A program made the translations under genes and the position numbers. A stretch of DNA of 62,077 bases, counting the filler, from Basidioascus undulatus (taxonomy: Eukaryota): NCBI GenBank assembly GCA_000826855.1. It is 15 parts of 15 records of this genome, joined end to end, with 100 filler letters (N's around TTAATTAATTAA, not from the genome) between each part and the next. Parts side by side here need not be neighbours in the genome. Positions count along the whole stretch, not along the records: positions 53,920 to 56,576 come from JTLS01002682.1; 14 more parts are not named here. One strand, written 5' to 3'. Shown here piece after piece: positions 15,921 to 59,292 of this stretch; positions within the stretch are counted from its first letter, which is position 1; every line of letters starts with the position of its first letter. Below the pieces are notes generated by a model. The model saw only the letters and a program-made list of their open reading frames with translations. It did no database searches and had not been told where the DNA came from.

Positions 15921-16552
15921 AGGGAGTAGGGTTATGTTGAGGGGTTGTGGGGGATTTTGGGGCTGGGTATAAATGAACTGGAAGGTGGTGCTAGGAGGTC
16001 AAGGTGACTTTGTTATGTGTTGTGCGGGTTTATAGTCTTAGGGTTATGGAGGGAAGCACAGATTTGGGTCAGATTCTGACGGTGAAACATTTTGGCTTCC
16101 GGTCAGACATGGCTGAGTTTGCATTAAGCAGGGGGAGCGCACAAAGAAGGGCGGGAGCGCACAAAGAACGCAGATGTGTGTTGTTGATCACATCCACACT
16201 CCACTTGATGGCACATGGCCGGCTGAATCAGCACTGGGGAGGCACCCGGAGGGCACCTGCTGGGTGCTGACCGGAATTCCCATGAAGTCACCAGTCAGGC
16301 ACCTCCTTGAGCTTGCCCGACTTCGCTGCCCACTGCACTGCAGGATGGCGGAGACAGAAGCCTGTGAGTCTCAACGCAGTAGCCTTTGATGCGAGCTCAG
16401 GTACCGGAGGGGCCCTTAGGACTCTACCTTGTAGTGCTCTCAGCTTGGGCACTGAGAACTTCGACAGTGTCATGAATACCCTCCCTCCCTTCACCAAGGA
16501 CATCTACACCCTCCCCTACCCTCTCCCTATTGTCACCTTCCTTTCCCTCTCC

Positions 16553-19420: not shown

Positions 19421-21996
19421 TGCCCTCTCCTTCGAGTCTGAGGATGCTCGCTCCTTCCCCACGCCCACCCCCGACTCCTTCGACGCCTACCAATCTCTCC
19501 TGCAGCAGCACGTCCTGGCCCCCACGCGCGCGGCGCTATGCCTCCCCGCCTCCGACGACCTCGCGTTCCATCGCTCGCTCGACCGCGCCTTCGCGCGCGA
19601 CCTCGACGCCGGGTCCGCGCGCATCTTGGGGCTCGCCAACTCGCTCGTCTCCCTCGCCAGCGGGGTGCATGCCGATCGCGGGAAGCCCAGGAAGCTCAGG
19701 GAGGAGGAGGATGTCTTGGATCGGAGTAAGGAGTTGGTGGGCGAGGTCGTGGACTGGTTGTTGGAGGATGCGGTGAGTGCACTGTCTTCCTCTGGCTCCC
19801 TGTGTGTGTGGTTGATTTACTCTGCGAGACTTTGCAGGACACCCACCTCGACGCGTTCACCGGGAAGTCCGGCCAGCCGCCTCAAATAGCGATCAACCCT
19901 TCCACCTCACACCGAGTGCGTCCCATTGCCCACCTTCCCCCGTCTCTATCCCTAACCATCCCACCAATCCCCACCCACCGCAGGACAAGCCCCGTCTCGA
20001 CTCGGCGCTCCGCGACGCGCGGCACCTCCCGCGGCCACAGCTGCGCTTCAAGACGCGGCTCGACAACTCGAGCGACAGCGCGTGGGTGCCGCTGCTCACG
20101 CACAAGCCGCACGGCCAGGTCCCGCTCGACTGGTCTGCCCCGCCGATGGACGTTGATGGAGAAGCGTCTGATGTCGCTCGGTGCGTTGTACCTTCCCCCG
20201 ACCTTCCCTCTCTACTTTGTTTGGCTGACAACCCCCGACCAGCCTCCCCCACCCCTATTACCACGAAATAACGCACCTCACCTACCCCTCCGGGCTCTTC
20301 TCCTCCTCCGCGCCCATCCCCGCGCGCTCCTTCGAGTCCACCCCGTTCACGTGGGTGTCCACCCCCGCCGAGCTCGCGGTGCTCCTCGCGAAGCTGCGCG
20401 AGGCCAAGGAGATCGCGGTCGACTTGGAGCACCACAGCTACCGGTCCTTCCAGGGATTCGTGTGCTTGATGCAGGTTTCGACGAGGGAGGAGGACTGGGT
20501 CGTCGACACGCTTGAGCTCAGGGAGGAGCTCCAGGTGCTTAATGAGGTGTTTGCGGATCCGGGGATCGTCAAGGTGCGTGGCTCCACCCCTCCCTCTCCT
20601 GCCCTTCCCGTCCTTTGTGTTTTCCTGGGAGGGAAGAGACTAACGGGGCGAGAAAACAGGTCCTCCACGGGGCGGAGAGCGACGTCGTCTGGCTCCAGCG
20701 CGACTTCGGGCTGTACCTCGTCAACCTGTTCGACACGTACCACGCAACGAAAGTGCTCGGTCCGTCCTTTTCCCTCTTCCCTCCCCTCTTCCATCCTCTC
20801 CTCCCCTTTTCCCCTCCCTCCTCTTCCCCTTCTTCCCCTCCTAACGCGCCCACCGCATGGACGACAGAGTACCCCTCCCACTCGCTCGCCTCCCTCCTCT
20901 CCCTCTACTGCGACTTCCAAGCCGATAAGCGGTACCAGCTCGCGGACTGGCGGATCCGCCCGCTCCCGACCGAGATGCTGCACTATGCGCGCGCAGACAC
21001 GCACTTCCTCCTCTACGTTTACGACCATCTTCGGAACGCGCTCCTGGACCGGGCCTCCACTTCCCCCTCCCCCACCTCCCCTACCTCCCCTTCTTCCACC
21101 CTCCCGCCTTCCTCCGGCCACGCGCCCAGGGAGAGCCTGGTGCGCGAGGTGCTGAGGAGGAGCGAGATTACGGCCCTGAGGACGTACGAGAAGGAGCGGT
21201 ATGATTTTGAGGGTGGGGAGGGGCCCGGCGGGTGGAGGTCCCTCGCGAGGAAGTGGAATAGGAGTGTCGTGGGGAGGGTTGCCGAGGTGTTTAGGTGGGT
21301 GCATCGGTGGAGGGACACGGTTGCGAGGGAGGAGGACGAGAGCACGCGGTTTGTCTTTCCCCTTCCCCCGCTTTCTTGCCTTGTTCTTTGTACTGACGGG
21401 AAGGTATCTGTCATCGGCAACCAGCTACATCCTCCCGAACCACCAGCTCTTCACCCTTGCGATCTCGCAGCCCACGTCCGCATCCGCCCTCCTCTCCGCC
21501 CTCTCCCCAGCGATCCCGCCCCTCGTCCGCGCGCGCGCGGAGAAGCTCGCGCAGGTCGTGCGCGACGCGATGGACGCTGCGGATGCGGGCAAGGGGGGCG
21601 CGATCGAGGTCGCGCCTGCTGTGGAGGAGACGGTGCGCACGGCGCAGGCGGAGGAGGGGATGGGCGGGCTGGTGCTGGACGTTTGGAGCGCGAGAGACGG
21701 TGCGGGGGGAGGGAGGTTGGTCGCGAGGGGGTCGAGCCTTTTGGGAAGCGGTGTGGGGAGGCAGGAGGGGAAGGAGGGGAAGCTGGTGGCGGGTGGGTCG
21801 GCACTGTTTGGCTCTGCATCGGCAGGGAAGGCAAACGTGAGTCCTTCCAGGTGATGGAGCCGATGGGATGCGAAGCCCAGACTTACTCGCTGGAGGATGG
21901 GGACAGTCCACCACGAAGACAAAGCCCAAGACGGCGGCAGAGGAAGTCTTAGCGCGCGTGAAGGCGAGCTTCACGCGCTCGGCGCTGCTGCCGAGC
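19421..21996 (+). CDS. RRP6: Nuclear exosome 3'-5' exonuclease Rrp6, partial at both ends
   Basis: PMC2NT region (DLAFHRSLD), EIAVDLEHHSYRSFQGFVCLMQVSTR, VLHGAESDVVWLQRDFGLYLVNLFDTYHA, ADKRYQLADWRIRPLP..MLHYARADTHFLLYVYD, and HRDC (WRDTVAREEDES.YILPN). Confidence 0.97.
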
Positions 21997-35648: not shown

Positions 35649-37323
35649 GGTCTGATGGTCGAACAAGTTCGAAGCAGAGCAAAACCAGATCGCGAAGATG
35701 AGCATTGGAACTAGATCAGATGTCGGTGTGAGAGGACAGAAGCTCACCTTTGGTCCAGCGCGACGCTCTCAAAGCGTGAGAAGACCAAGAAAGACACTTC
35801 GTCTGCACATGGGTATCCAAAGGTCGTCAGCACGCAACACCACCAGGAAAGGGGTCGAGTTTCCCGGCTAGACCCAAGTCCACATCTCAGCCATCCACGG
35901 GAGAGGACGTCTTCCGGTCGCTCTTCCACTCCACGCCAGCCCTGCGGCCCCACCGGCGAAAGAGAATGGACCCATTACTCACCGAACAGAATCCCCAAGT
36001 CCCATCAATATCCAATTGTCGAATCCTGGCTCCTCCCCAAAGCTTTAGCCGCGGGACGTCTACCAGCTCGTGCAGATGGGATTTACAACTCCAATCCCGT
36101 CTGTGTTCCAGCGATTCTACGCAAAAGGGTGATCCGAAACGGTCGGCCTGTAAGCTACTATAAGATCAGTCCTGCGCTGGTCCAACCCACCCCCGGAGAG
36201 ATTCGCCGTACCAAATCTCGTTTCGGCGAGGAGACTCGAGATGAATGGAGAAGACGATTATGGATGTGAAAGAAGGGCGCTCTGCTGGAATAGTGAATGA
36301 CAGTCAGTCGCCGCGCCTGGAGCCCGCCGTTGATGTCTGCTTCTCCAGCTTCTCCACATTCTGCACAATGACGCCCGACGCACATGCCGATCGCCGCGCG
36401 ACAGCTGCTGCTGCGCCACGGCTATTTACGCCGGTCCCCTCAACGCCGGGAATCCGCTCGAGGGCAGGAAGAATGATATCGAGCGAGCTTGCGAGTGGAC
36501 GGACGGTGAGCGTAAATGGGCAAGCGGGCGAGCAGGCCCGCAGGAGCGTTCTGCCTCGGCGAGGCGGGCAACAAGAATGAGGCCAGGAGACCACGGGCGT
36601 GGAAGCAATTACGGCGGGCGTTTCGAAGAAGCGTTTCAGCTTGGCAGCCCATCGCCGGCTTCTGCTTCGGAACGCCGGCCGAGGTGAACTGCACGTTGCT
36701 GCACGCGACATGCTGTGAATATTTGGAATGCCAACAAGTGCAAGGTATCATTTCTTTGCTTTCCTGCTACTGCAAGTCGAAGCGAACAGCGAATACGTTG
36801 AAGAAATCAGAAACCTTCGCTGTATGGCACCGACATTGGCGAGCTTGTTCCTCATCAACGCCCAACCTTCTCACTCACCACCCCCGCACTCTTAAGATGA
36901 CGATGCCCCGTAGTCAGCGATAACCGCGCAGCCCTGGTATTATTCCATGGGCTTTCATTTACCGAGAGTCCAACACCGACCATGGCAACTGTATTTGGCT
37001 AGATAATCGCAGAAACAGCTGCACGCCCCTGAAGCTGAGGAAGACGCAAGAAGACGCGGCGAGAAGCATGCCAGCCCGCCCAAGGGCTGTCAAATGCCTT
37101 ATTAGCGTGAGCAGGCTACGGAATGAACTGTTGAAGCTCAAAGATCTTCATTAATCCCGATTCTCATTTCTGTTTGGACAGGTCGTGAGAATCAGTAGCA
37201 CGATATCCGATGAGGTATTTTCAGATCACCCAAATTGGGTTTCCGTTCGACACGGTTAAGAGGGAGCTGGTTAATACACAAACAAGACGGCCTCAGACAT
37301 GAACATGCGGTTATGCGTATGAT

Positions 37324-39769: not shown

Positions 39770-40390
39770 ATCGTGCGCACCCAGAATAATGTATGCATTG
39801 CGAGCTTGTTTTCAATCGGTAGGTTTGTCACTTGCTGTTTGCTGCAGTGAGAAATTCGAGGTGAACCTACAGATCTGAAAGTCAACGGTTGAAAGCGGTG
39901 TCGTCGATTTTCAACAAATAACACCACCAATCACACATGTACCACTATGGCAAGCTCAATGGCCGGATCTAGCTCTCATTTTTGCACGATAAGACACACG
40001 CAGGGTATGCGACCAAAAGAGTGCGATGCGTCTGCTCATTAAAGTGTCGTACTATTTTGTCTGAGACATAGGGGGTCTCAGGACTTCATTGCAATTGCGT
40101 CCCAGCGCCGAACTACTTTCCTTCCTGTTGATTTTGGTTCAAGTTGCGTAGAATGCTATGATTCAGAGCACTTGATGGAAATGTTTCAATGCCTTGGCCA
40201 ATATGCTCCCATGTGGACACTCCAGCATCTTTTGTTGCCGTCGGCCAAGTTGCCTGGCGCGATGGCGTAGCCTTCACAGCACGCCTGGACCAGCACAGAT
40301 AGTCATCTCCGTAGGCTTTTTCTGCATTTCCGCTATACATATGGACATGACAGTTCCATAACCAGACCAATCCAAATATGCCTTTCTGGG

Positions 40391-40700
40391 ATCATTCCCA
40401 GTTCTCGATATGTACTTCCAGATGTCGCCATCCTGCATCCCCACCTGCTCCGGCGTGCTCTCTGCAAAAACATGACTCCCATCGAAGAAATTGTAGTAAC
40501 GCCATCTCCGAAGCCAATCAAGCTGCATCGGACCACAAAAATCCGCCATGCACTTGCAGACATGGGCTTGGAGCGGCTGGTCCGACCACACAACCGACCA
40601 CACAACTGCAATTAGCGTGCCGTCAGCGCCCATAAGGAAGGGGGGCAGCGCCAGAATCAAAGAGTAACGCTTACCGCAGGCCACAAGGCAGCAATGGATC
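40391..40700 (-). pseudogene. SUMO-like (Rad60/Esc2 SLD-type) domain, degenerate
   Basis: CMADFC...FFDGSHVFAESTPEQVGMQDGDI then, shifted, LEVHIENWE*. This matches the SUMO-fold FxFDGxxxxxxxTPxxLxMEDGDxIxV pattern, has no di-Gly, and has an upstream GTAAGC...CTAATTGCAG intron. Confidence 0.6.
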
Positions 40701-42046
40701 ACAAAGACATGTCAGTTGCGACACTATGCGGTCAATGTGAACGTGATGTAAGAATTTAAATGGACTTGAATGCAGCACTTCACCTAATGTAAGGCGCGGG
40801 TTTACCAGCAGCCTCTTGTTGAGCTAGCTTCGACGTCGGCGGCCACAGCCGTGACTTGACTCCGATGCTGAGGCCGGCAGAGAGCGTGATCTTCATGAGT
40901 GTCGCATAGAGGGACGACGAAAATATTGGCGATAGGTTTCACTCGACTGAGAAATCGACTGTGAAAGTTCGTTTCGACACGGCCCGTTTGGTCCTTGGGG
41001 AGGGAACGGACAGGTTGACGAGCATCGAGCGCACCGCCTATGGATGTGGCTCCTTTTCACTGTTAGTCTTCCTCACCGAGCCAATATCTTCTCCAAGATG
41101 GTTCAGGCCCACCTCTCAATCGGCTGAAAGCATGGCCCGAAGGACTGCCTCCGCAAAGTCCTTTTACACGACGGCCACGAGCGCTCCTGCGTCGTCCTTT
41201 CTGGTCGGAGGGGTGGTGTAATCGGTAGGCTGGGAGAGCTGTAATGCTTGATAGAAGTCGAAGCAAATGATGGAAGTCCTTGTGAATTTGGTTTTGATGC
41301 AATCGATCGTCAATCAATATGGTGACGATGCCTGGATGGGGATGAAGACGGTGGAACGCACCAAAGATCTGACACTAGAAGACTCAAATCAACACGGGTG
41401 AATCCTTAGCCTTGTCAGACGGTGCCGGTTCGCCTGTAAGCTAATCCAACATAATACCAGTCTCTCATAGTGCAACTGTGTGCTCATATAAAAGATTACA
41501 CATCACTCCGGCCCTGTGGTCGGTCGACGCAATTCCAAGAGGGCAGACAACCGGCCCGGCGTCAGCACTGTTAGAGAGCAGTTCGCCATCCCGACTTCAC
41601 TGTGAACCTTACCAGCAATGTTTATTGCCAATATACCAGAGGTGGATGCGATTGGGACTTTCGGGGAGCATACCACACATGTAGAGAAAGTGGCCAAGCA
41701 CGTTGTTCGTCGTATCCTTGCGAATGCTACGCGGCATGCCGCATGCTCGGCTTCATTGCACATTCTCCTTCCCAGGTTGCCTTCGTTCAAGATGCCCTAA
41801 GCGGAATGTACAGTTGTAAGACTGAATGACCGTCGTCCATATCACAGCGCGACAGCGCGACACGCGCAACAGTGTGCAGTACGATCGATGCATGCTTGCA
41901 GGTAATCGAGCGCAGAATAAAGAACGAAGATCCACGCAGACGCATTGGCGCGCGCGCACAAGCAAAATGAAAGAAGAAGAAACTAAACGCGAAAGAAGGG
42001 TCCTCAAGAAGACAAGCAGCGAGCGGGATGCGACGGATGCGATCCC

Positions 42047-45000
42047 TCAGTCGATGACCTCGAGGTTCCGGCTCCACGCGGTGACCTTCGGGTGGGCGAG
42101 GACCTGCACGACAAGCGGTGGGTGAGTGAGAATGCTGGAGTGAAGAGTGGGGGTGGAAAAAGAGGCGGACTTTGGACGGGTCGAAGCCCTTGCACTCGAG
42201 TCCCTCGAGGCTTGTCGCACGCGAGAGGGCGACGTAGGCTTGGCCTGGCATGACGGGGAGTGCGCATCTCTTCAGTCACGGTACGAGAAGGGAGAAGAAG
42301 GGGGTCGAGAGGAATTAAGCGCGAGGGGAGTGGGAGTACGTACCCTTCTCGAAGATGCGGGTCAGGTCAACCTTGACGCGGTCGAGCGTCTGGCCTTGGC
42401 TCTTGTGGATGCTCTGGCATCCCCGGTCCGCATCGTCGGCAATGTGACAGAGGAAAGTAGGGAAGGGAGGAAGGGGAAAAGGAGGAAGGCGTAAAGGGGA
42501 GACGCACCATCGCCCAAGAAAGCAGCAGCGGGACCTGCGACCTGGACGCGTCGACGCCTCCGCTGGGGTTCTCGACCTTCCATGACTCAGGCTTGCACAA
42601 GAGCTCCTTCGTCCCGCCGCCCGCGACGCGGAAGCGGACGAGGGGGTACTTGTCCCCGCGGACGTTCGGCGGGGGCGGGGGGATGACGCGCTTCGGCTTC
42701 GCGCCCGGCTCGGTCTTGACCTCGACGCCGCGCTCGACCTTGACCGTGCCCTGGTCCGTGTACTTCTTGCGCACTTCGATCTCGCCGTCGAAGAACTCGT
42801 CGTCGGACGAGAGCTCGATCTCGTGGTACTTCCCGTCGTCTCCCAGGCCCGTCATCCCGCGCGCGGCCCACGTCTGCTCGTCGATGAACGCGATGACGTG
42901 CCCGAGCGAGCCGTTGACGAGCACGCCGTCGTCCATGTTCTTGATGAGCCTGCGCGCCAACAAGTGCCCTGTCCCGTCAGCACCTCGCACCCAGAGGGGA
43001 TGCTTGGAAATTGCGATGGCTCACATGACCTGGCAGTTGAGCTTGAGCTCGAGCTTCTTGGGCGCCATGAAGTTGGCGAGGATCTTGTCGCGCTGCTCAG
43101 CTGGCATCTGGCCGCCGTCGATAGCGGTGAAGGCTGCAATACCGGAGCGGAAGAGCCCGGTCAGTGCCATCCCAGCCTCAACCCGCACGACAAGCCTGAC
43201 GTACTGCGAACTGCGCCCTGCAAGCCATCCATCTTTTGGCGGTTCGACCGCTCGACCTGGTCGCGGTGGGTGAAGCTACAGCACGCACGGACGACCCAGT
43301 TAGCCGAGCCCGGTGCTGCGGAGAAAGAAGACGACACGACACGCACAGCTCTGTCGGCTCCAGCCCGTCGTCGAACTGGAGCGGCCTCTGCAGCTTCCGG
43401 AACTCGGTGATCGAGTGCTGAGAGAGCTTGCCGAAGCGCATCTCGTTCAGCATGTCGACGAACTCTACACATCTCAACACCTGATCAGCTTCCAAGGCCC
43501 TCAAGCGTTGATAAAGGGCGGAAGAGAGGGAGCCACGCACTCTGGTCCTTCTGACGGAAGACCTGGCGGAGGTTGACCGTGTGGTCGATCTTCTCCTTCC
43601 ACGCCTTGGCTTCGAAGCAGAAGTTCGGCTGGCCGTTCTTCGAGACGGGCGGAAGCTGGAAGAAGTCGCCCGTGACAACGAGCTGTTGACGCGTGTTCAG
43701 GGAGACTAAGAAAGAAGTGGTTTGAGATACGGATGTGACGAAATGAACGCACCTGGAGCCCGCCGAAGGGTTCTGCGCTCTTACGGATGTTCTTGCCCAC
43801 GTCGGACAGCTTCTGGAAAAAGTCGCCATCGACCATCGACACTGTCCGGCACCAGCTCGCCCACGCATCAGCTCTGCGTTGCACCGCGATCTCAAAGCCG
43901 GAAGGCGGTTCACACACCTTCGTCGATGATGAGGACCTTCGTGCGCAGCCAGCGCGCACTCGCCTTGCGGTTCTTGCGGACCTTGGCCGCGAGCTTATGC
44001 GCGTCCTCCGAGGCGATGCCGCAGCCGCTGAAGCTGTGCAGCGTGCACCCGCCGACGTTGCACGCGGCGATGCCTGTGCTCGCTGTCACGGCGACGGCGT
44101 CCGAGCTGCGCTTGTACTTCTCGCGCAGCGCCTTAATGATCTCCCTCAGGAGGACCGACTTGCCGGTACCTGGTCAACCGTATTGCGCCTCATATCAGCC
44201 TGTCTCATCGCGGGAGATAGAGCGGAGAAGACGACGCACCGGCCGAGCCCGTGAAGAAGATGCTCTTGCCCTCCTTAGCCATCTCTAGCACGCGCTGCTG
44301 CTCGTTGCTGAGGATGACCTTCTGGCGGATGGTGAGGTCTCTCTTCTTGAGATTCGCGCCCGTCGCGGTGCTGCGGGCCGACGCGAACGCCGGCTTCTTA
44401 TCCTCCTCCATGCGCGCCTTGGACGAGGACGCCGCGGCGCTCGCATTCCAGGGCATGTCCGAGCGCGCCTTCTTGGTCGGCGGCTCGGAGGTCGAGGTGG
44501 ACGCGAATGCGGACACGAACGTGGATGCGGCACACGCGGACGTGGAGGAGGACGCCATGGCCGCCATGGCCGCGGCGATGGCGGCGCGGCGCTTGGCCGC
44601 GCCCTCCGCGGTGGGAACTGTGCGCGGGGTGGGACGGGCGGACGATGAGGTGGAGGAGGTCGATGGGCGGGGAGGAGCAGGAGCAGCGGCGGCGGCGGCG
44701 GGCTGGGCAGAGGCGCGAGGGAGCCGGGGCGTAGGGGGCGGGGAAGGCGACCAGGGGATTTCGAAGCTGTCCCGAGAAGAGTTGTTTGAGGTGTTCCAGT
44801 CGCGCTTGAAGGACTGCAATAGAAGCAAAGGGAGATTGTCAGCTCGCGGCGGCGGCAGGGCTTCGGGGAGGCAGGACGACCTCAGCAAGCGAGACGGCGC
44901 ATACACCCAGCGCTTCGTATTCCTCGCCGCAGTTTGATCAGCTCGACGGAATGTACCTCCATCTAAGGACTGTAAACCCATTAAAAACTCTCTTCGAATC

Positions 45001-45240
45001 CCCTGCCTCGCACACTCTTACTCAACCGAGCGCCCAGGTAGGAACTACGGCCCAGCGCCGCTCGCCCACATCCAATCAACTCTCCAGCGCGTCCAACTGT
45101 CCCAGCGGCCACATCCGTTCCGTGCGACATCCATGCCCTCGGGCGCCGCTCAGAAATGCAGACCCCCAACTCACATTGATCCTCGACAGCGGCCTCCCGT
45201 TGCTGCCCTCCGGCGCGTTCCGCTCGCTAAGCGGTGCCAT
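42047..45240 (-). CDS. PIF1: ATP-dependent 5'-3' DNA helicase Pif1, complete multi-exon gene
   Basis: [120 protein letters not shown]. First exon 45240-45175 is inferred. Confidence 0.96.
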
Positions 45241-45374
45241 GCTTTTTGTCGGGACTGATTGAAGCCCGCACGGGTCTATGGATAATGTATGCGCTGTAGA
45301 CTGTCTAAAATTGAAAATTGGATTGCCGTTAAACTGAGCGAGAGGAGCGAGAGTGATGAGGGCAAAAAGGGAGG

Positions 45375-45407
45375 ACGCGTTGTGTGAACGCGTCTGAGGC
45401 AGACGCG
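45375..45407. promoter_or_regulatory. Clustered MCB-like (ACGCGT) boxes upstream of PIF1
   Basis: ACGCGT at 45375-45380 and 45388-45393, plus ACGCG at 45403-45407, 135-170 nt upstream of the inferred ATG. Confidence 0.5.
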
Positions 45408-45699
45408 CCAGGGCGCCATCAGAGGCCGGTTTAAGGCGGTAAGGGGGAACGGCAAATAGTACGTTCTCTCACTCTCACCAGAATGCCCACTACGACTGCA
45501 GCTGCAACTTTTCCTATTTCACAGTGTTATTTATAGTGCTTCCTTCAAAGAAACAGGAGTCTATTCGGAGATAACCAGCCAGGCGATGGAACACAAACCG
45601 CAACCTGTCGTCGCGGCGCCGTCTTCTCTTCTCACCACCATCACTGATCCTCGCTGCAGTGCACTCACTTCTTGCTCATCTCGTCAAAGCCTCCTCACC

Positions 45700-46307
45700 A
45701 TGCTCACCTCGCTTCGATGCTTCATTTCCGATAGAGCGGGTCTCGCACCGCTCCACGCCTCACTCGGAAGCTTGCCTCGACCTTTCTCGTCTTCCCCCGT
45801 CTCGCGGTGACTACGACCGCTTCCTCGCCCGAACGACGGATCGCGCGCGCCAACCGAACAGGACACAAAGCCAGCGGCTCATCCTGCGGTAAGTTATGAT
45901 TTTGGGTTACCCGCTCGTCTCAACTACGTTGGCTCATCTCGCCTCACGCAGGGCACACTTCGGCGTCGGTATACAATGAACGAGGTAGGGAATCACCTTC
46001 CTCTCATAGACCTCCTTTTACTTGACTCTAGTCCTCACAATTTGCCGTTTTGGTCCCATTCTAGAAGACCAAGAGCCTCCGCTCCCGCCCCATATGCGCA
46101 GGGAAGCGCGGCGTTGCGCTAGACTCGCCAGAGCACCAGCGGTTCATTTCGCAGCGGGACGAACTCGTTGCCGGCGGATTTCTCCCGCACAAATTCGGAG
46201 AAAGGGGCAGAGTCAGAAACAACGATTACTGCACGCTCAGGGACTGGTGTATCCCAGAGCTGATGCGCTTGATCACTACGACCGGGGTACCTGGACTTGC
46301 GATCACG
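45700..46307 (+). pseudogene. Orphan family copy C: exons 1-3 only, premature TGA
   Basis: Exons 45700-45888, 45952-45984 (33 nt as in A) and 46065-46307 (243 nt as in A; DSPEHQRFISQRDELVA, DWCIPELMRLI). TGA at 45808-45810; exons 4-5 not recognisable. Confidence 0.75.
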
Positions 46308-47467
46308 GTACGTGTCCTTCAATTACATGCGTGCTCGCTCTGGTTTAGTTGAGGGACCATAGTTCAAAGTAAGCAATCTCAGCCACGTACAAACCCAAGT
46401 TTCCTACAGATCGACAAATTCTTGTTCTTTTAAGGCAAGCTTTTGGGTGAAACGCACAGGCTGCAGTGCAAGCCGGCAGCCCCCCCTGTTCCTTGCACCA
46501 AGGTCGGGAAAAATGTATAAAGCGGTCTGGATAGTAATGCACAAACTTAAAAAAGACGCAAACGACCGCTATCAGATGTGCAGGGGCAGGCCGGTCTGTT
46601 GAGCAGCCTTGTCAATTGTGATGGGCTATTGTACCACGGGGACAGCGTGAGCAGGACTAACTTGACGAATCTCGTCTTTCGAGTGCCCCCGTCTCGACGG
46701 TGATCGATAGTCTTCTATCAAACGACGTCTGCTTGTGGAGATAAGTAGGTCCCCACCACGCGTTGACTAGAAACTTGTTGGGCTGGCGCAGCTGTTCAGG
46801 CAGCACCATCCAGCTTATATCCGCAACGCCCATTTAACCCGCCTCATTCTTCGACATTCTTGCCTTCCCTCAACGAAGATCCCGAGCACATTGTAAGAGA
46901 TACAGATTCAGCTGGCCAAGATACACTCCTACCAATCCCTGTGCAGCAAGAAAACGGTTCGCCGGCCCAACACAACACCCTGCTGCGCTGCGCCGAAAAA
47001 AGGAAGTCGCAGCACTGACGGTTCTCGAACGTCGTCTCTCGTCGATCAAAGCCGCCCCAGCTCCAACGTCGACCCTTGGCAGCCGCTACCGCCGTTTATC
47101 TTCACATCCTCCAGAGCTTTTCCCTTCGTCGACCAAAGCCCCGTACGACACCCCCACCGTTCTCGAGCGAGGAAAAAAAATGCATTCCTCACTAATTTGA
47201 TAAGGCACCGGGTGGGTTGCATGCGTCACTCGCCCATCGTTAGCGCAAGGGCCAGAAGCCCGCCGAACCGAAAGTCAACTACTCCGCCCGCGCTCCGCTG
47301 CTCCTCAACCGTCAGCGCGCAGCACTCGTGAAGCCGCCGACGGAAACAGAACTGCCCGCAGCTCTGCGCACAGCCAGGTCATCCACAACAATGTTTTCGC
47401 TTTCTCCCTGTTCCTGTTCCTCTCCATCAACCTTCTCATCCTCCCCATCCACACCGACACCGACATA

Positions 47468-48202
47468 ATGACCGCCCCCGCCGACCACGCAGCCTCACCT
47501 CCCAGCGCGCCCGCAGCGTCTTCCTCCGTTCCCTCTTCCCGCTCCGCCTCCCCGTCACCAAAGTACGCGGTGCATCTGCACTCGCCCAAGGGCCGGCGGC
47601 TCTCCCTCCCCTCCCTCTCCCAGCCGTCTTCAGCCCCTCGCCCACTCCAGCGCTTGACACGGAAACTGCTGCTCCTCCTCGCCCTCGCGCTCCTCGCGAG
47701 CTTTGCGCTCTATGCACGACACCAGACGCATTCCCCGTTCCTCGCCCGCCTAGTACGCCCCCCCTCCCCTTCTGCCCTGCCTCCCCAGCCCTCTGAGCAC
47801 CTTTCCTCCCGCAGGCCGGCCGACCCGCCCCCAGAACACTAGACATCGTCGTAGCGTACTACGACCTCTCGCCCGAGGGGGTGTCCCACCTCCAGTCGCA
47901 CCTCGCGAACCTGCGCAGCTACTTCGAGGAGGACAAGACGGAGTGGGAGGTCAGCGCGATAATCTACCAGAAGGGGGACGTTCCCGGCGCGGGCGTGCTG
48001 CTCCGCGAGACGGGCGCGAAGGCCGTTGTGGGGCTGGAGAATGTCGGGAGGGAGGGTGAGTGGTTGAGCGGGAGAATGCGAGAGAATGCGAGGGATGCTG
48101 ATAAGTTGGAGGGGCGGGGAACAGGAGGGACGTATTTGCACCATATCATCGATAACTATAACCACCTCGCAGACCTGACGCTCTTCGTTCAACATCATCT
48201 CG
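47468..48202 (+). CDS. DUF3431 family type II membrane protein, 3'-truncated
   Basis: TM segment LLLLLALALLASFALY, LDIVVAYY, IIYQKG, LENVGRE|GGTYLHHIIDNYNHLADLTLFVQHH. Confidence 0.85.
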
Positions 48203-48299
48203 GTGCGTTCCTTCCTTCCCCCCTCCCCCCTTCCCCCTTCTTCCCCTCCTTCTCCCGCCCAAGCCTCCACCAAGCCTCCCACTAACTCCACCCCTCACA

Positions 48300-48399
48300 N
48301 NNNNNNNNNNNNNNNNNNNNNNNNNNNNNNNNNNNNNNNNNNNTTAATTAATTAANNNNNNNNNNNNNNNNNNNNNNNNNNNNNNNNNNNNNNNNNNNN
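48300..48399. other. Artificial contig linker
   Basis: 44 N + TTAATTAATTAA + 44 N. Confidence 0.99.
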
Positions 48400-48439
48400 T
48401 GGCTTCTCAAGAAGGCCCCCCCCCCTCTCCCTTCTGTCC

Positions 48440-48837
48440 CTACTCATCCTCCTCGAAGAAGGGAACCTTTTGGTCCGCGGACCCACGGAGTGTAACACCA
48501 AGGCGTTGGAGTTTGATGCTTAGCCCTAGCGCCCATCCCAAGAATGCCTCGTTGTCCATGCCAGAGAAAGCGAAGGCAGGTTCTATGAGCAGTGGACAGG
48601 GGTGACCGTCGAGATCCTCAGTTCCGTCAAGCGACCGAGCCTTTTCAGGTAGGGCAGCCCGTCGCGCGCGCCGTCGTCCGAAAACTCCACGTAAAAAAAC
48701 GAGGGATTCGAGCGCGGGACAGGACTCGGCGAGGGCACGTAGGAGGTTTTCCCCGGACACGATACGAATGAGCGCGCCGCCCCAGCCTGTCAGCCTGTGG
48801 GAAGTGAGGTTCGGGAGGCGCTCAACGACCGCGGGCC
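48440..48837 (-). pseudogene. LRR/F-box-associated-like fragment
   Basis: VVERLPNLTS and LLRALAESCPALESLVF are LRR-like repeats; upstream frames are broken by stops. Confidence 0.35.
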
Positions 48838-49590
48838 ATCAAAAACGCGTCGAGCCGGTTATGACTGCACGATGAGGAGAACGAACGGTTCGCGAGTTAG
48901 GTGTTTGCCACGAACTTTTCAGGTCTCCTAGGCCTGTTTGCGCAGTCTCCAGTGTCCGTCGTGTGTGACCTACTGTTCGCGAGCAGTTCGTTTTGTTAGT
49001 CTCTCTCACTATAAATACACGAGCTGTTTGACGCTGTTCGTAAACAGCGCCTTCCCAGACGAAGCCGCTCTGAGAAGATGCCTGACAAGCCTGTCGGGCA
49101 CTTGTGATCCAGCCTTTGCTGCTTCCAACCACAATTTTAGACAAGATAAGCTGCTTTAAGCAGATATTGGACAGCCTCGAGAAAAGCTTTCGACGGGAAT
49201 GCGTCGTTTAGGTCGGCCAACGGTGGCCCGGGGTTCACGAACTGTGTGGAACACGCCCATTTCATACTTCTGCCCTGTTTGCACATCTTCGCCAGCTGTT
49301 CATGAGAAGCTGTTTGCGAACAGCTCGGGGTGGTGTTGTCTTACAGTTCGTGTTCTCGTGCTTCAAACAGTTCGGCGAGCTGCTCACGACCAAGGTGTTC
49401 GTCCTACTCCCTAAGCTGCGTACGAAGACACGAAACGCCAGGACATCGATATGCGAGACGATGTGATGTTTAGTGATGGCTTGGATAGTACAGGAAATGG
49501 AACGGCGGGACAACGACTGTGTAATGCGGGAAGCGAAACTTAAAAGTACAGAACGGAGTGGCAGAGAAGCGAAGGATCAAAGCAAAGCAA

Positions 49591-50322
49591 TCACAGCACC
49601 TCCCCGCGCTGCCCCGCGCTCGACAAGCACTGCTGTACGACCTCCAATAAATGCTGGTTCTCGAGCGCCGCGGCAACACGCTCCTTATCGTTGAGCTGCT
49701 TGTTCACTGTCCGCGTCCCCCACCCTCATCAGCATCCCCTCCTCTCCCTTCCCCTTCCTCTGTCTCATCAACGTACCAGCATTCTCGCTCTGATGGCTCC
49801 CCTCCTTAACCTTGATGTCCACCTTAAACCGCTCCGGCAGGGCGCGCAGCAAGCGCACGCGCAGACTCAGCCCAATGAGCGTCGCCATGCTGCAGTGCGG
49901 GATGGTGGGCGTGAACTCGACGTGCACACGCGAGCGCACGTCGTCCACCGCGATTTGCGGGGCGGATACGACGGCGAGCTGCTCGAGCGTGAGCGGGTGC
50001 TCGGGGTCCGTTATGGAGCGGAGGAGATCTGCGGGGTGGGGTTTCTTTAGTTGCGTCTCGTGGCGGGAGAAGGTAAGGTATGGGGAGGAACACCAGACGC
50101 ACCGAACACCTCCGTCTGATCGATCGCCTCCACGTCCGCTAGGTCCGGCTCCACGGTCTCCTGGTCCTCCTCGCCCTCGTCTGATGAGCCCGACCCCGAG
50201 GCGGACCCGGAGGGGTAAAGAAAGTCAGTCGACCAGGGCGAGTCCACCACGCGGCGGGCGCGCCCGGTCGGCGCGGTCGGAGCGTGGATCGTCGGGTTCG
50301 CGTTGATGAGCTCAGTGGGCAT
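49591..50322 (-). CDS. CIA2: Cytosolic Fe-S assembly component Cia2 (FAM96B/MIP18), 3 exons, complete
   Basis: LINANPTI...[24 protein letters not shown]...[18 protein letters not shown]...FKVDI...[25 protein letters not shown]. Confidence 0.96.
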
Positions 50323-51159: not shown

Positions 51160-53689
51160 AAGCAGGCAAAAGAACAGAACGCAATGCGACAGCGGAAAAC
51201 GTAAGGAACTAAAAGGCTATGGGAGGGAGGGGGCGGGGGTCAGGATCTGTGCAGGAAGGGAGGGGGGTTAGCGGGCCGGTGTGCAGGGGTGGGCGGACTG
51301 GGACGCACGAGACGCAGATCCCGCGAACTGTCGATGCGCCACAGCTCATGAAAGAGGAGGTGCCTCGGCGATTTCAGTCGTTCCCTGCACGGTCCATCCA
51401 AGACACAAATCAGCTTCCCTCATCTCGCACAACCCATGACCACCGAATGGAACGCACAGCAACACTTCCTCCCACGCCGTCCCGACGTTCTCCAAAAACC
51501 GCACAAACTCGGGCGACCGCTTCGGCCTCCGCGGCGTCTCCCCCTCTTCCGCCGCCGCCGCGGCCTCCTCGAACGCATACAGCTCCGCCACGTCCCGCGC
51601 GATGTCGTCGATGAACGCCTGCTCGGGGTGACGCGCGGAGGTGGGGAGCGCCTCTAGGTACTCTGACGCGCGCGAAAGGAAGGTGGACAGCTCGGTGACG
51701 CTCAGCTTGCTGTTCGTTTTCATCAGCTCGGGAAGAGAGCCGGAAAGGGTGGGAGTAGAAGAGTTACACACCTGAACGCAGTCATCACAGCGTTCACGCG
51801 CTTGGCCAGTGTCCCGCGGAGGCCCTCAAGCATGAGTGTCCCCCGTGCAACAGCATAGCTGTTGCTCGCCGCGGGGTTCTCGCGGACGACGTCGTACAAG
51901 ATCTGCAGCAGGCGGAAAGCGACTGCGAAGCGGCGTGCCCAAGCGCGGAAGGCCGCGTGCGCGTCTTGCACGAGCGTCATGAGCTGGGGTGCCGTGGGCG
52001 CGCCGGAGAGGAGTGCTTGTTGTGTGGAGAGGGGGAGGGAAGGCAGCGCGGAAGAGACGGAGGGGAGGGGGAGGAGGTAGTGCGCTGGTGACGCGGAGGG
52101 GAGGGTCGACGGAGGGGAGGAGAGAGTGCCGTAGGGCTGGAAGAAGTGGGCGATGTGCAGCAGCTGTGGTGGGGAGGGAGGGATTGAGATGGAGGTGCGG
52201 AAGAGGAGAGTGCGGGGCGGCGCACGTGGAGAGCGGATAGGAGAGTGGCGGAGGAGTTGTCCGTCCCGCGGGAGATGTCGCTCAAAGCGTCGAAGACGGA
52301 CGGGCCGATGTAAACGTCGGGCAGCCAGTCAGCGCTAAAGAACAGCTGCACATCCCTCCCCCTCATCAGCCCCGTTCGCGTCCCCCCGCCGGCGGAAGAA
52401 GCAGAAGCACGCACCGCCTGGACGAGTTCGTCGAACGTCTCCCTCGCGTGGGGCGCTGCGACCTGCGCAATCTCTAGCTCGGCGAGGGTGGAGCGCGGGA
52501 GGACGTCGTGAAGCGCTGTGCTGCTTGTAGACACGCCCAGGAGGAGCACGAAGGGCAGCTGCGGCTGGTAGAACGAGAGGAGGTGGATGAGGTCCGCGAG
52601 GAGGGAGGGGTCGAACGCGTCGGCGTCAGAGAGGGTGATGACGAGCTTGTTATGTTCTGCGGAGCGAAGGGTGTGCTTAGGCGATCTTCGCGGGAGAGAA
52701 GCGGGGAGAGGAGGGGTGGGGCGAACCTCGACTGCCCGAGATGTGCTCGTACCACGCGACTAGCCCTTCAAAGTCGTAGTTGGCTAGGATGGTCGTGCCT
52801 GGCTTCTTGGGAACGTTCCACCCGCCCTTTACACCATCCTATCGTGAGCCCACACCTCCTCAACTCTGGAGCGCGATGTCAACTCACCGGCGGTCCGTCC
52901 AGAAACGCCTCGTACGCCTCCACCAAGCGTGCGATGAGCGTGCGCATCCCGCTCTGCAGGTCCTTGAAGTCCTTGCTCGCGAGCTCGCAGCAGACATGGG
53001 CGGAGGTGGATGCTATACGGTCGCACGCGGCGCGGAGGAGGAGGGCGGTGTCGGAGGAGTTCGAGCCTGTGGGCCGCTCCTCCCCTTCAGCAGACGTTCC
53101 TTCCTAGTGGAGCGGTGTGCCCAGACTCACCGATAACGATGCATGCCGGCACCTCGTTATACGGCGAGAGAAACGGTTTAGGGGAGTACGCATCGGCGAC
53201 GAAGGAGGAGATGCGGTCGAGGGTGGGCGCGTGCAGGCGGTCGAGGGTGTCCTATGGGCGCAAGACGCGCTTCAGCACATAGAGGACGCGCCTGAGAGGG
53301 ATGAGGCGCACCTGTAACCGAGCTCTGCACCTGTTCCATGCGTGAGAGAACGCCCTGCCGCGGATCTCGGGCCCGTCCGCTAGGTCGTGCTCGTAGATGG
53401 GGAACCCGGGCGCGTCGTCTTCGAGGCTGAAGGGCAGCTCGTCCTCGCTGTCTTCAGGGTCGCCGTCATCTGAATATGTGACTCTCAGCTCTAATGATCC
53501 TGAGCTCAAAGGTCCTTCAGAACGTACCGCTCGCGTACAGCTCGACAAACACGCCCTGAAGAACGAACCCCACGCGTCAGCTTAAGCACCTCCAGCGCGA
53601 GCCGGGATGGGGCCGCGTACCTGGGTGACCGATGTCCACACGTCGATATCGTCCTCATGGCGTGCCTTCTTTGCTTGTCTTGGTGGCAT
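51160..53689 (-). CDS. ORC3: Origin recognition complex subunit 3, 3'-truncated
   Basis: KLVITLSDADAFDPSLLADLIHLLSFYQPQLPFVLLLGVSTSSTALHDVLPRSTL, R..AF..AW near the N-terminus, and LLFHELW...ILTPAP before the missing winged helix. Start MPPRQAKKAR at 53689. Confidence 0.8.
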
Positions 53690-53819
53690 CGAAGCTGGCT
53701 CTGATTTGAATGTCAAAAGTGTAAAGAATGCCAAACGCGAAGAGCGTGAAGCGAGAAGGCAGCCCTCCGCCGAACCGGGTTCGGTGCCCGAGACCCCGCC
53801 CGCCGTCCAGCGGCTCCCC

Positions 53820-53919
53820 NNNNNNNNNNNNNNNNNNNNNNNNNNNNNNNNNNNNNNNNNNNNTTAATTAATTAANNNNNNNNNNNNNNNNNNNNNNNNN
53901 NNNNNNNNNNNNNNNNNNN
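53820..53919. other. Artificial contig linker
   Basis: 44 N + TTAATTAATTAA + 44 N. Confidence 0.99.
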
Positions 53920-54061
53920 CTTGCTCTTGCTCTTGGACTCTTTACACTTGATTCCTACATCCCACCCTCCGCCCGCTGGTCGTCTCTTCCACCTGTACCA
54001 ACACACCCTTCAACCGCCCGCCCGCACGCACCCCTGACCACCACTGCCTCCGCATCGCACA

Positions 54062-55755
54062 ATGTCCGTCTCGCATCTCGTGCTCCGCTTCCCTTCACCT
54101 CGCGCACTCACACCAACATCTCCCCTCTGGTGCAGGGCAACCGACGCTTCATACGACTATCTCTTCAAGATTAGTTCTTCCCCCTTTGTCCCCTCCCTCC
54201 CTTCCCGCCGCCCGCGCCCGCGCCCGCACCTCCGGCCCGGCGGCGGGAGGGCTGCTGATGATGATGGACAGACAAGGCTGACATGGGCTTGGATGGCGGG
54301 GGTTGATGCTGGGTGTTGGGCGTGTCTACGTCGTGCTCATTGGTGGTGCGTCCCCCGTCTCCACGCCTTCCACTCGCCCGTGTGCGTTGATCGGGACACG
54401 CTAATCTCCCTCCCATCCCCGTTTCACCAGACTCCGGCGTCGGGAAATCGTCCGTCTCTCACCCACCTACCCGCGCATCTCTCTCCCTCTCCCCCTCCTT
54501 GCTAACCTCCCACCTCCTGCGCCCTTCCCGATCCCACACAGCAACCGTCCGTCCCCATTCCCCCTCCCCATCTACGCACCTCCCCTTCGCCCGAGGCTCA
54601 CGCCGCGTTCGTGCCCCTCACAGTCCTCTCTCGATTCACCCGCGACGAGTTCAACCTCGAGAGCAAGTCCACTATCGGCGTCGAGTTTGCGACGCGCAGC
54701 ATCAAGGTCGAGGACAAGACGATCAAGGCGCAGATCTGGGACACGGGTGCGTTGCGCGTCTTCCCTGCATCTGGGGGTATCTCAGGGGATGAGTCAGCGG
54801 AGGATATTCGGAAGGTGTTCTATCTTGGTTGCTGACTCTTCCTCTTTCTCCCCACGCGCTCAGCCGGCCAAGAGCGCTACCGCGCCATCACGTCCGCGTG
54901 CGTCTTCCCTCTCACCCAGCATCTCCCCTTCCCTCGCCTCCCCCTGCCTCAATCTGACTCCCCACGCCCACGCAGGTACTACCGTGGGGCCGTCGGCGCG
55001 CTGCTGGTGTACGACATTGCGAAGCGGGCGTCGTACGACAACGTGCAGCGCTGGCTCAAGGAGCTCCTCGACCACGCCGACACAAACATCGTCATCATGC
55101 TCGTCGGCAACAAGTCGGACCTCAAGCACCTTCGCGCCGTGCCGACGCAGGAGGCGGAGGACTTTGCGCGTGCGTTGGACGCCCCCTTTCTCTCTTTTCC
55201 CCTCCCCCTTCCCGTGTCTCTCCCACCTCCCAGCGCTCTGCCTCTCCCCTGCCCGCCTGCTCCTCCCTGCTTTCTCTCCCTCTCCGCCCTGCCTTTTCTC
55301 CCTCCCCCGTCCGACAAGGTGATCTGACAGGGAAAATGGGACCGATGTGGATGGATGGCGTGGGTGTGGGGTATACAGGCGCAGAGGACCATCCGTCACA
55401 CCCCGACAAAAAGCTCCACTTTATCGAGACGTCCGCGCTAGACGCGTCAAACGTCGAGAAGGCGTTCCAGGACATCTTGAAGGGTGCGTTTTCGTCTCCT
55501 CTCCCCGATCCCTCCCTCTCCCGTCCCGCCCTTCTGCTCTTTCCCGACTACCATCCTTCCCTTCCTTCCCTCCTTGCCCTTTCCTTCCGAGCTGACTTTT
55601 CGTGCCTTGGGATGGGTGTTGCAGAGATCTACGACCAAGTGGCCAAGAAGGCGCTCGAGTCGGACGACGCGCAGATCAAGCCCTCGGGCGGGGAGACGAT
55701 CACCGTCACCCCCACGGCCGATAACGACGCGGCCAAGAAGGGCGGGTGCTGCTGA
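54062..55755 (+). CDS. YPT3: Rab11-family GTPase (Ypt3/Ypt31), complete, 10 exons
   Basis: [49 protein letters not shown]...[24 protein letters not shown]...LVGNKSDL...FIETSA...GGCC*. Confidence 0.97.
54170..54329 (+). other. Non-canonical AT-AC intron (160 nt) in Rab11
   Basis: TTCAAG|ATTAGTTC...GCTGAC...GTCTAC|GTCGTGCTC. Removal gives exactly YLFK-VVLIG, and no GT-AG solution exists. Confidence 0.85.
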
Positions 55756-56576
55756 GCTATCCACATCCCCCTCTCTCCCCTCCCTTCCTCCCGACATTTC
55801 ACTTTCTTCACCGTGCATACCCCCTCGACTCCACTCGGCCCCTCGGACTGCCAGCGTTCCCTCTAGTGCACCTCCCCTCCCCTCTCACCGCCGCCGCAAC
55901 CCCTCGGTTTCCTAGCGTCTCTCCTCTCGGCCCCTCCGCTCGCGCTCCACCCCGGCTCCAAGTCCCACCCCACCCTTGTACAGCGCCTCCTTTTTTTTCT
56001 TTTTCCTTGATCCGGCTTTCGTGAAGCTGCTGGTTTTCCTTTTTTTTTCTTTTTCCTTGATGTGCCTTTTCTTTCTGTTTTTCAGATGACAGCTCTTACG
56101 ATAACTGCATGAGACGAATGCGTGATCGGGTGCGGGTGCGGCTGTGAATGGGGAGCGTTTGAGGAAAGGGGGTGAAATCGGGAGGGGCGGGGTGATGGAA
56201 GCGTTTGCCAGAGTTGGGGGTTGCTCGGAGTTGGGATGGGAAGTGAAGAGAAGTACTGGGTCCGAGTGCAGTGTCGGGTGTCAACGCCAGGCGTTTCCTG
56301 TGAATGTGAATGCGAAAGGTCAACTAACGCGCGAGGATGCAGGAGACACTGGGCTGGTCTCGCGACGAACTTGATGTGATGAGGGGTTTCGGACAAGCGT
56401 TTATTCATGTGGCCATCTTTTCCGATGCTTATCGGGCAATGCAAGCTTGATACAGTTTTTGCAGGGACCCAGTGTGTAAGCGCGTTAAAATTCTAACCGC
56501 ATCCGTGCTTCGCGTACATGAGCTGTATCGTTAATGGCGTCAACACGTGTACTCGCTGTGTTTCGGAAGGCTTACC

Positions 56577-56676
56577 NNNNNNNNNNNNNNNNNNNNNNNN
56601 NNNNNNNNNNNNNNNNNNNNTTAATTAATTAANNNNNNNNNNNNNNNNNNNNNNNNNNNNNNNNNNNNNNNNNNNN
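56577..56676. other. Artificial contig linker
   Basis: 44 N + TTAATTAATTAA + 44 N. Confidence 0.99.
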
Positions 56677-57163: not shown

Positions 57164-58214
57164 CGTCGGCTTCGGGTCGTTGGCGGTCGGGGGAAGAGCC
57201 AGCGGAGCGGTTCGTGCTGGGGGTCGCTGAGTGTGGAGTGCGGAGAACTGCGGGTGGTAGAAGCAAGAGGAGAGCGGTTAGTCAGTAGGGAAGGCCAAGG
57301 CACGGGCGATTGATTGCACGTGAGTGAGGCTCAGCGGCGCTCAGGCTCAAGCTCGTGCAGCTACGACAACCGTGAGGGGCCGGGGGTGCGCCGGGAAGGC
57401 TCGTAGGATGCCTAGCTCCATGGCAATCTCCTCGAGGAGACCGCAAGTCGATGCCGTTCGGCGTGGAAACCCGCTCATAGACCCACACCGCCCACAGCCC
57501 CGCCGCTCGACCTGATCCCAGCCTCGGGGCTGCACGCCAGCATCGGCAAGAGGAATACAACTCACAGTATTCTATCAGTCAGTCAAGATCGGCGTCGTTG
57601 AGCTGCGAGTAAGGGCAAGAAGATGAGCATTCAAGGAACGCACTGAGGACAACGCCCAGTCCTCCACCGGCACCGGCCGCACTGCTCGACGCCTGCCCCG
57701 CGGGACACGGCGGTGGAGCTGGGGTGGCAGAATAACGGCTCACATAATGGGAATTCGGAACAGTACTTTGGAGACCATGTACTTGGGTCGGAGGAGGTGC
57801 GGTAGATTGTGGTCGACGGTGATGGTCAAAGGGGCTGCCCAAGGCTGCAGGCACGCGCCGAGCCCAGTCAAGCAAGTCACAGTCAGCGTCCTCCGCTCGC
57901 TATCGATTCCCTTCGCTTCCCCAGCCACTCACCGCTTGTACTCTAAGTGCAATCCAACACCGATATGCGCGGAGCTGTTGAGGTGAAGGTGAGCTAAGTA
58001 AGAGCGGTGATGGCGACGTGGAGACTGGGCAGCAGCAGCCTCATCTCGAGGTGGAGAGCTCGGAAGCTCGTTCGATCCGCGGATAAGCCGCGGAAGAAAG
58101 CGTGGGAATCGCACGTAAGCAAAAGTTCAAGTTCTGCCTCTTGCCGCCGCCTTGTGCTTGCCGCTCGTCTTCTCCCTCGATTCCGTAACGATAAATCTCT
58201 CGACTGCTGCTAGG

Positions 58215-59292
58215 ATGGCCACTCCCGGACCGAGCACCGTCGTCGACGCCAGTGCGATCCTCGCCGGCGCAGCGTCCAAATTGTGCGTCCCGCTCCCGCA
58301 CCCGGTGGCTTCTATCGTGCTCACGCTTGCTTCCTTCTCGCCGCGCAACAGCCCCTCGATCGCCATCGAGCGCGAGGAGGCGATCCAGGTGGACCTGCAC
58401 TACCTCGCAGCGTACGACCCGAACCCGATCGACGTGGCCCAGCTCTCGTTCGTCCTTCCCCAACCCTGCTCCTGTCCTCCCACTAACCACCTCCCCCGCA
58501 GCACCTCCCCCTCTCCCTACCTCCTCTCCCTCGCGCGGGACTCCACCCAATCGCTCATCGCCGCCCTCTTCGCGCAGCCCATCACACGCACACACGATGG
58601 GCCCGTCGCCACGCTCCCTTCCGACCCGAACCCGGAGCTGCTCGCCCTCCCGCGCGAGAAGCCGCTGCCCAAGAAGCGGGAGGCGACCAAGTGGGAGAAG
58701 TTTGCGAACGCAAAGGGCATCCAGCATCGCAAGCGCGATCGGTATGAGTTCGATGAGGAGCGCCAGGAGTGGGTGCCGCGCTGGGGGAGGGGCGGGAGCA
58801 ATAAGAAGGAGGAGGAACAGTGGATTCATGAGGTCAAGGCGGGTGCGGGTGAGTTGTCCTTCCTTCTTCCCTTCCCTCCTCTCCCTCCGCCATGCTCCCT
58901 TTCCCCCCTCCGCTCTCCCCTTCCCGTCTCACCCCATCTCCTCCCCACGCAGACGCCGACTTCGACCCCGTCCTCTCCGCGCGCGAAGCGCGCAAGTCGC
59001 GCACGCTCAAGAACACCAAAGCCGCGCTGAAGAATGCGGGCGTGACGAAGGCTGCGCAAGCCGCCGAGCAGAAAGCCGCGGCCGAGCGGCGCTCGCAGCA
59101 GACTGCAACGAAGGCGGAGCTTGAGAAGGGGCTGGTCCGCTCGCGGGGGGCGACGGCAAGTATGGGCAAGTACGTCTGAGCGTGGGTGCGAAGCTGGATA
59201 GGGATGGAGCGCGGTTCTAACGGGGTCTGGTGCGTTGTAGGTTCGACAAGAAGCTCGAAGGCGAGCCCAAAGTCCGCGGTCAAAAGCGGAAG
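58215..59292 (+). CDS. RRS1: Ribosome biogenesis regulatory protein Rrs1 (all but the last exon)
   Basis: DLHYLAAYDPNP, ARDSTQSLIAALF, LPREKPLPK...TKWEKFANAKGI, FDEERQEWVPRWG, ATASMGK|FDKKLEGE..VRGQKRK. Confidence 0.95.

Follow-up and report, generated by a model that had tools for sequence, protein, structure and literature searches.

The window, the whole 62,077-base stretch of DNA analysed here, contains a gene for a Rab11/Ypt31-type GTPase whose second intron begins with AT and ends with AC. We consider that intron 2 is probably a genuine U2-type AT-AC intron, which would have arisen from an ancient GT-AG intron at the K/V codon junction through paired changes, G to A at its first base and G to C at its last. 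Read in this way, it is a member of the already known U2-type (type II) AT-AC class, a rare one and not a new kind.

The region 53400-55800 was read and the exons were joined by their coordinates, which gave a gene of ten exons and a product of 220 residues (Table 1). The whole gene lies inside one contig (53920-56576). The spliced translation has the character of a Rab11/Ypt31 small GTPase, with an N-terminal YDYLFK, the P-loop GDSGVGKS, the switch motifs, WDTAGQE, NKSD, ETSAL and a C-terminal double cysteine. The yeast counterparts of the gene, YPT31/32, are jointly essential. Protein searches with exon 8 returned Rab11 proteins only, named Rab11, Ypt3 or Ypt31, at 81 to 89% identity and none above 89%; a search with the 42-residue C-terminal exon gave zero matches at E values up to 10. 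Five introns interrupt the first 27 codons. Eight of the nine introns are uniform, opening with GT[G/C]CGT and closing with CAG, and in seven of these eight canonical introns a CT[A/G/C]A[C/T] motif lies 18 to 51 nt from the 3' end. Splicing of intron 1 rebuilds the start codon (AT/GTCCGT...GTGCAG/G) in the context acaAT/G, with A at -3 and G at +4. The length of this intron is a multiple of three and it holds no in-frame stop, so that its retention would add 24 residues in frame.

Table 1. Exons, introns and other features of the Rab11 gene, in window coordinates.
Feature	Position	Strand	Remarks or basis
Exon 1, last two bases (AT of start codon)	54062..54063	+	G from exon 2 after splicing
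Intron 1, 72 nt, GTCCGT...GCAG, splits start codon	54064..54135	+	CTCAC 25 nt from 3' end
Exon 2, 34 nt, YDYLFK codons at end	54136..54169	+	sequence reading
Intron 2, AT-AC, 160 nt	54170..54329	+	ATTAGT...GTCTAC, phase 0; sequence reading and exon assembly
CTGAC, candidate branch site	54278..54282	+	A at 54281
Intronic ATG in VVLIG frame, start of rival truncated-protein model	54306..54308	+	context ggttgATGc, T at -3
Exon 3, 16 nt, VVLIG and first base of D codon	54330..54345	+	exon assembly
Intron 3, 85 nt, GTGCGT...CCAG	54346..54430	+	absent from 11/12 related phase-0 loci
Exon 4, 19 nt, P-loop codons DSGVGK and TC	54431..54449	+	exon assembly
Intron 4, 92 nt, GTCCGT...ACAG	54450..54541	+	exon assembly
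Exon 5, 5-nt micro-exon CAACC	54542..54546	+	5-nt exon at same place in relatives
Intron 5, 77 nt, GTCCGT...ACAG	54547..54623	+	exon assembly
Exon 6, 123 nt, switch I and start of switch II	54624..54746	+	exon assembly
Intron 6, 117 nt, GTGCGT...TCAG	54747..54863	+	CTGAC motif
Exon 7, 34 nt	54864..54897	+	exon assembly
Intron 7, 78 nt, GTGCGT...GCAG	54898..54975	+	CTGAC motif
Exon 8, 194 nt	54976..55169	+	Pfam Ras PF00071 on covering ORF, E 1.5e-24
Intron 8, 209 nt, GTGCGT...ACAG	55170..55378	+	CTGAC 51 nt from 3' end
Exon 9, 105 nt	55379..55483	+	exon assembly
Intron 9, 141 nt, GTGCGT...GCAG	55484..55624	+	CTGAC motif
Exon 10, two-cysteine prenylation end, TGA	55625..55755	+	exon assembly

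Two further observations concern the second half of the gene. Two acceptors of intron 8 are in frame, ACAG at 55375-55378 and GCAG at 55381-55384, which lie 6 nt apart, and two isoforms are possible. The loop before ...FIETSAL (window 55170-55440) exceeds that of the closest related locus (L075, see below) by about 7 or 8 residues; in L075 the intron sits at a different codon.

The window itself is a series of 15 contigs, roughly sorted by length, of which one measures 23.4 kb and the others about 2.65 kb each; they are joined by 14 identical linkers of the form N44-TTAATTAATTAA-N44 (for example at 2684-2783, 53820-53919 and 56577-56676). Genes that are adjacent in the window do not, therefore, adjoin each other in the genome, and the contigs of about 2.66 kb with their linkers mark the sequence as coming from a fragmented draft. 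The host phylum was read from an RRS1 open reading frame at 58119-59027 (+; Pfam PF04939), which has 83 relatives with identities of 33 to 64%. Those with names include Tremellales sp., Tulasnella, Tilletia, Cryptococcus, Boletales, Sporobolomyces and others, as well as one Jimgerdemannia; all of them but the last are basidiomycetes. Judged by these RRS1 homologues, the assembly clearly belongs in Basidiomycota. On other contigs, two adjacent frames (20229-21949, +) with a 3'-5' exonuclease domain correspond to an Rrp6-like gene that has either an intron or a frameshift, and Pfam matches were found to the N-terminus of ORC3 (51980-52759, -), an Fe-S assembly domain (49688-50224, -), a chromo domain (15432-15998, -) and a fragment of a PIF1-like helicase (43488-43994, -). 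The chromo domain and the helicase fragment may come from a mobile element. An open reading frame of 933 residues (32970-35768) is of low complexity, had zero Pfam matches and was uninformative on the placement of the host.

The borders of intron 2 follow from the protein on both sides. The upstream exon closes with ...YDYLFK, its final codon being AAG, and the downstream exon opens with GTC and encodes VVLIG. When alternatives were tried by hand, the conserved YDYLFK-VVLIG was obtained from the AT..AC borders only, and none of the GT-AG models tried produced the conserved Rab11 protein. Homology sets the borders to the base, as in 12 other Rab11 loci an intron separates these two codons. In the VVLIG frame the intron contains a TGA at 54279-54281, and its final AG is at 54275-54276, 53 nt before exon 3, with no AG in the last 53 nt. 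AG acceptors are therefore unusable for reaching exon 3 in frame. Since the length of the intron is not a multiple of three, its retention would shift the frame, and its removal is required for a protein made from the upstream start. An earlier, sequence-only reading had called the AT-AC intron obligatory in Rab11 and had pointed to the same TGA with no AG between it and the exon; both statements hold on the fuller gene model.

Several other ways of joining the two exons were considered and rejected. From the donor GT at 54174, any in-frame join would require GT..CG ends. Joins yielding FKIVLIG or FKIVVLIG would require AG..TC or AG..AC ends. The donor GT at 54188 combined with the AG at 54275 reads into the TGA. 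A nested ('stwintron') arrangement fails because the base directly after AAG remains A, and A-to-I editing of the first A would leave the C at the 3' end unmended. The intron contains short tandem repeats, namely three GCCCGC units (54207-54228) and a GAT run (54255-54266); like intron 8, it is C-rich 5' of the branch motif and G-rich 3' of it. A hairpin joining its ends is unsupported: compared with shuffled sequences, the predicted folds of intron 2 (z = +1.48) and intron 8 (z = -0.18) were not more stable.

The signals of intron 2, in so far as sequence tells, are of the major-spliceosome kind and unlike those of U12-type introns. Its 5' end, ATTAGTTC, differs from the U12-type donor ATATCCTT at five of eight positions and does not have the form [A/G]TATCCTT. 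U12-type AT-AC introns combine this donor with a TCCTTAAC box near the 3' end; intron 2 lacks both and has in common with them the terminal dinucleotides. Its best matches to TCCTTAAC, with three mismatches, are over 120 nt away from the 3' end, and in the last 40 nt the best 7-mer has mismatches at 4 of 7 positions. The sole branch-like motif in range is CTGAC, a candidate U2-type branch site 48 nt from the 3' end. This distance is typical of the gene, the same motif occurring 18 to 51 nt from the 3' end of introns 6 to 9, with the largest distance in intron 8. Between CTGAC and the terminal AC there is neither an AG nor another AC. These results bear out the sequence-only reading in its choice of branch candidate and in its placing of the signals with U2 and not with U12. 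Its likening of ATTAGT to the U2-type GTRAGT stands in part: T2, G5 and T6 are the same as in all eight other donors of the gene, and the preceding exon ends in AAG, whereas T at +3 and A at +4 stand against G or C and then C in the rest of the gene. Because +3 and +4 differ as well as +1, ATTAGT is more than one change away from the local consensus. Among donor-like hexamers in the window, GTGCGT (72 seen against 28.7 expected) and GTACGT (23 against 9.6) are enriched, and GTTAGT is not (9 against 9.3). By our count, AAG/ATTAGT would form at least as many base pairs as the CGC/GTGCGT-type donors of the gene with the 5' end of U1.

The history of the position was read from Rab11 loci in metagenomes. 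Contigs were scanned with the 64-residue exon, which gave 80 loci whose classes were assigned by script. In 12 loci the K and V codons are separated exactly by a phase-0 intron, all of them GT-AG and 43 to 91 nt long; in 29 loci the intron, again always GT-AG, comes one base later, after AAR G, and is in phase 1. The K/V junction is uninterrupted in 26 loci, many of which resemble transcripts; in a further 10 the VVLIG exon lies outside the fetched piece and in 3 the upstream exon was not found. AT-AC ends at the K/V junction occur in none of the 80 loci, and none of the 41 introns at or one base from the junction has a GTATCC or ATATCC donor. The 5-nt micro-exon comes after GVGKS and covers the N codon together with one base on either side, the third of the S codon and the first of the L codon. 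Of the 12 phase-0 loci, 11 have a 5-nt exon at this place, as does L012 (in full, L004, L005, L009, L012, L014, L019, L040, L056, L064, L069, L075 and L078), so that the gene architecture is common to them and the window. The closest locus, L075, has a GC content of 66% and a protein core 84% identical to that of the window, and it carries the CAACC micro-exon and a GTCCGT...GCAG intron at the K/V junction. Its intron directly after the ATG lies one base later than intron 1 of the window.

The comparison also brought out differences between groups of loci. The phase-0 introns (12 loci, L004-L078) and the phase-1 introns (29 loci, L013-L062) are offset by one base, and the phase-1 group has few other introns. 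From gene architecture, the phase-0 group would be basidiomycete and the phase-1 group ascomycete. The offset may reflect either a one-base slide of the intron or two independent insertions. In the window, intron 3 (85 nt, GT-AG) cuts a 35-nt VVLIGDSGVGKS exon into 16 and 19 nt. As this exon is whole in 11 of the 12 phase-0 loci, intron 3 looks lineage-specific and has the appearance of an intron gain.

With all 41 introns at or one base from the junction being GT-AG, the ancestor of intron 2 was by this evidence an ordinary U2-type GT-AG intron, and the absence of AT-AC ends from the same 41 points to a lineage-specific conversion and not to an old conserved AT-AC intron. The survey of termini across Rab11 genes that the sequence-only reading had proposed thus speaks against one of its own suggestions, that of a converted minor-intron relic; its other suggestion, a rate-limiting control point, finds evidence neither for nor against it. 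What is observed is the anatomy of the gene, the homologous position of the intron in other loci and the GT-AG ends that relatives have there; that intron 2 is excised, by which spliceosome, and which end changed first are what we infer. On our preferred reading, an old GT-AG intron between the K and V codons of YDYLFK/VVLIG, kept by related fungi, would have changed its first base from G to A and its last base from G to C in the lineage of the window, and the resulting intron would be removed by the ordinary major spliceosome. For recognition, the donor would pair with U1 and U6 through the final AAG of the exon and A4-G5-T6, the branch site would be CTGAC, and the 3' site the first AC downstream of CTGAC. 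A and C at the intron ends are the only pair of changes known to preserve the contact between first and last base that the second splicing step needs.

Precedents for such an intron exist. Sheth et al. 2006 (PMC1557818) list 24 type II AT-AC introns among about 610,000 introns of five species, with a position weight matrix score of at least 75 as the donor criterion, and name SCN4A/SCN5A and TAF2 as human examples; they also mention that U2-type AT-AC introns had earlier been hypothesised for xylanase genes of filamentous fungi. Intron 2 is like these in its AT...AC ends and in a branch motif of the major kind, and its 5' splice site may be of that kind as well; it differs in its host, a basidiomycete, in its gene, Rab11, and in that its ends recur in none of the 41 comparable loci. 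The same paper describes how, in U2-type introns of yeast and human, a first-base G-to-A change was rescued, less efficiently, by a G-to-C change of the last base. This agrees with the earlier proposition that terminal A...C can replace G...G, and the two substitutions are identical to those of intron 2 in a former GT-AG intron, although the engineered mutants splice less efficiently and the double change of intron 2 is fixed in nature. In fungi, AT-AC is less frequent in annotations than in those of animals or plants (PMC7072748). RNA-seq-guided models of A. niger, P. chrysosporium (a basidiomycete) and T. lanuginosus contained 0.03% AT-AC junctions (PMC4084796), and the annotation of Coprinopsis and Malassezia accepts AT-AC as a splice type (PMC12230235, PMC5389616). 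These junctions are, as in intron 2, AT-AC in Dikarya; the AT-AC passages of the three papers give frequencies only, with no Rab11 case in them. As for the minor spliceosome, which the sequence-only reading took to be lacking in Dikarya, convincing minor introns are reported to be found in neither Ascomycota nor Basidiomycota and to be completely absent from Dikarya, and loss of U11, U12, U4atac and U6atac is reported in Basidiomycota (PMC10639083).

Other explanations of the AT-AC ends were weighed against this reading. Intron 2 could be unspliceable, in which case the gene would use the ATG at 54306 as its start and yield a Rab11 shortened at the N-terminus, or would be a young pseudogene or redundant paralogue; we regard this as unlikely, though it deserves more weight than the accounts that follow. 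The shortened protein would have 17 former-intron codons in place of YDYLFK, and exon 2 would be a relic that has not yet decayed. The ATG at 54306 is indeed in frame and open into VVLIG; by our estimate, however, an in-frame ATG would occur by chance within 17 codons in about one case in four, and this one has T at -3, whereas exon 2 has a canonical upstream intron that rebuilds a start in good context (aca-ATG-G). Divergence also speaks for this account. The protein core of the window is 78.5 to 84% identical to those of 22 other full-length Rab11 proteins. Its median identity to 21 of them is 80.8%, against 88% among these 21, a difference that is due in part to the longer loop before ...FIETSAL. 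As it is somewhat more diverged than its peers, the Rab11 of the window could be a relaxed paralogue. On the other hand, the nine codons D-A-S-YDYLFK of exon 2 differ from L075 by four synonymous and zero non-synonymous codon differences (six bases), and exon 2 looks selected. The remaining eight introns and all GTPase motifs are intact, and the two end changes are not arbitrary and make up precisely the functional A...C pair.

A set of more speculative readings, which we hold to be improbable, keeps the conversion and the major spliceosome and gives the intron further consequences. Its splicing may be inefficient and throttle the dosage of Rab11; the fixed natural double substitution of the first G to A and the last G to C would then act within an ancient intron of a core trafficking GTPase. 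Alternatively, the lineage may have relaxed its fidelity for end nucleotides and may hold many such introns, or the in-frame ATG at 54306 may have served as a bridge while intron 2, with one end changed, was spliced poorly.

A sequencing or assembly error hiding a true GT-AG intron 2 is slightly less probable still. The draft is fragmented, with contigs of about 2.66 kb, and the homologous introns elsewhere are GT-AG without exception (41 of 41). An error would nevertheless have to have produced two independent wrong bases 160 nt apart, both exactly terminal and together exactly the known compatible pair; moreover, the departures at +3 and +4 from the local donor pattern suggest real divergence. 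Hardly credible, finally, is a U12-type AT-AC intron in a basidiomycete that has retained the minor spliceosome, for which one may cite that AT-AC ends in animals and plants are mostly U12-type (PMC7072748), but which is at odds with the donor and branch signals of intron 2, with the U2-type GT-AG introns of relatives at this position and with the reported lack of minor introns in the phylum, while the result that Rfam found zero families above threshold in the window, snRNAs included, says little for a stretch of 62 kb.

In summary, we retain the reading of intron 2 as a probable U2-type AT-AC intron converted from a GT-AG ancestor. It does not open a new question. Such introns are expected: with 0.03% AT-AC junctions (PMC4084796) and an assumed 40,000 to 50,000 introns, we estimate about a dozen per intron-rich fungal genome. 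For annotation, gene finders limited to GT-AG and GC-AG introns will mis-annotate the N-terminus of this Rab11, an outcome made likelier by the split start codon, the exons of 16 and 19 nt and the 5-nt micro-exon, the last of which is itself a likely trap. If spliced as read, intron 2 would be a clean natural conversion of a GT-AG to an AT-AC intron, in a fungal phylum that lacks the minor spliceosome and at a position whose ancestry dozens of relatives reveal. It would then support the view that terminal dinucleotides do not define the type of spliceosome, and would provide a natural counterpart to the classic yeast suppressor experiments.
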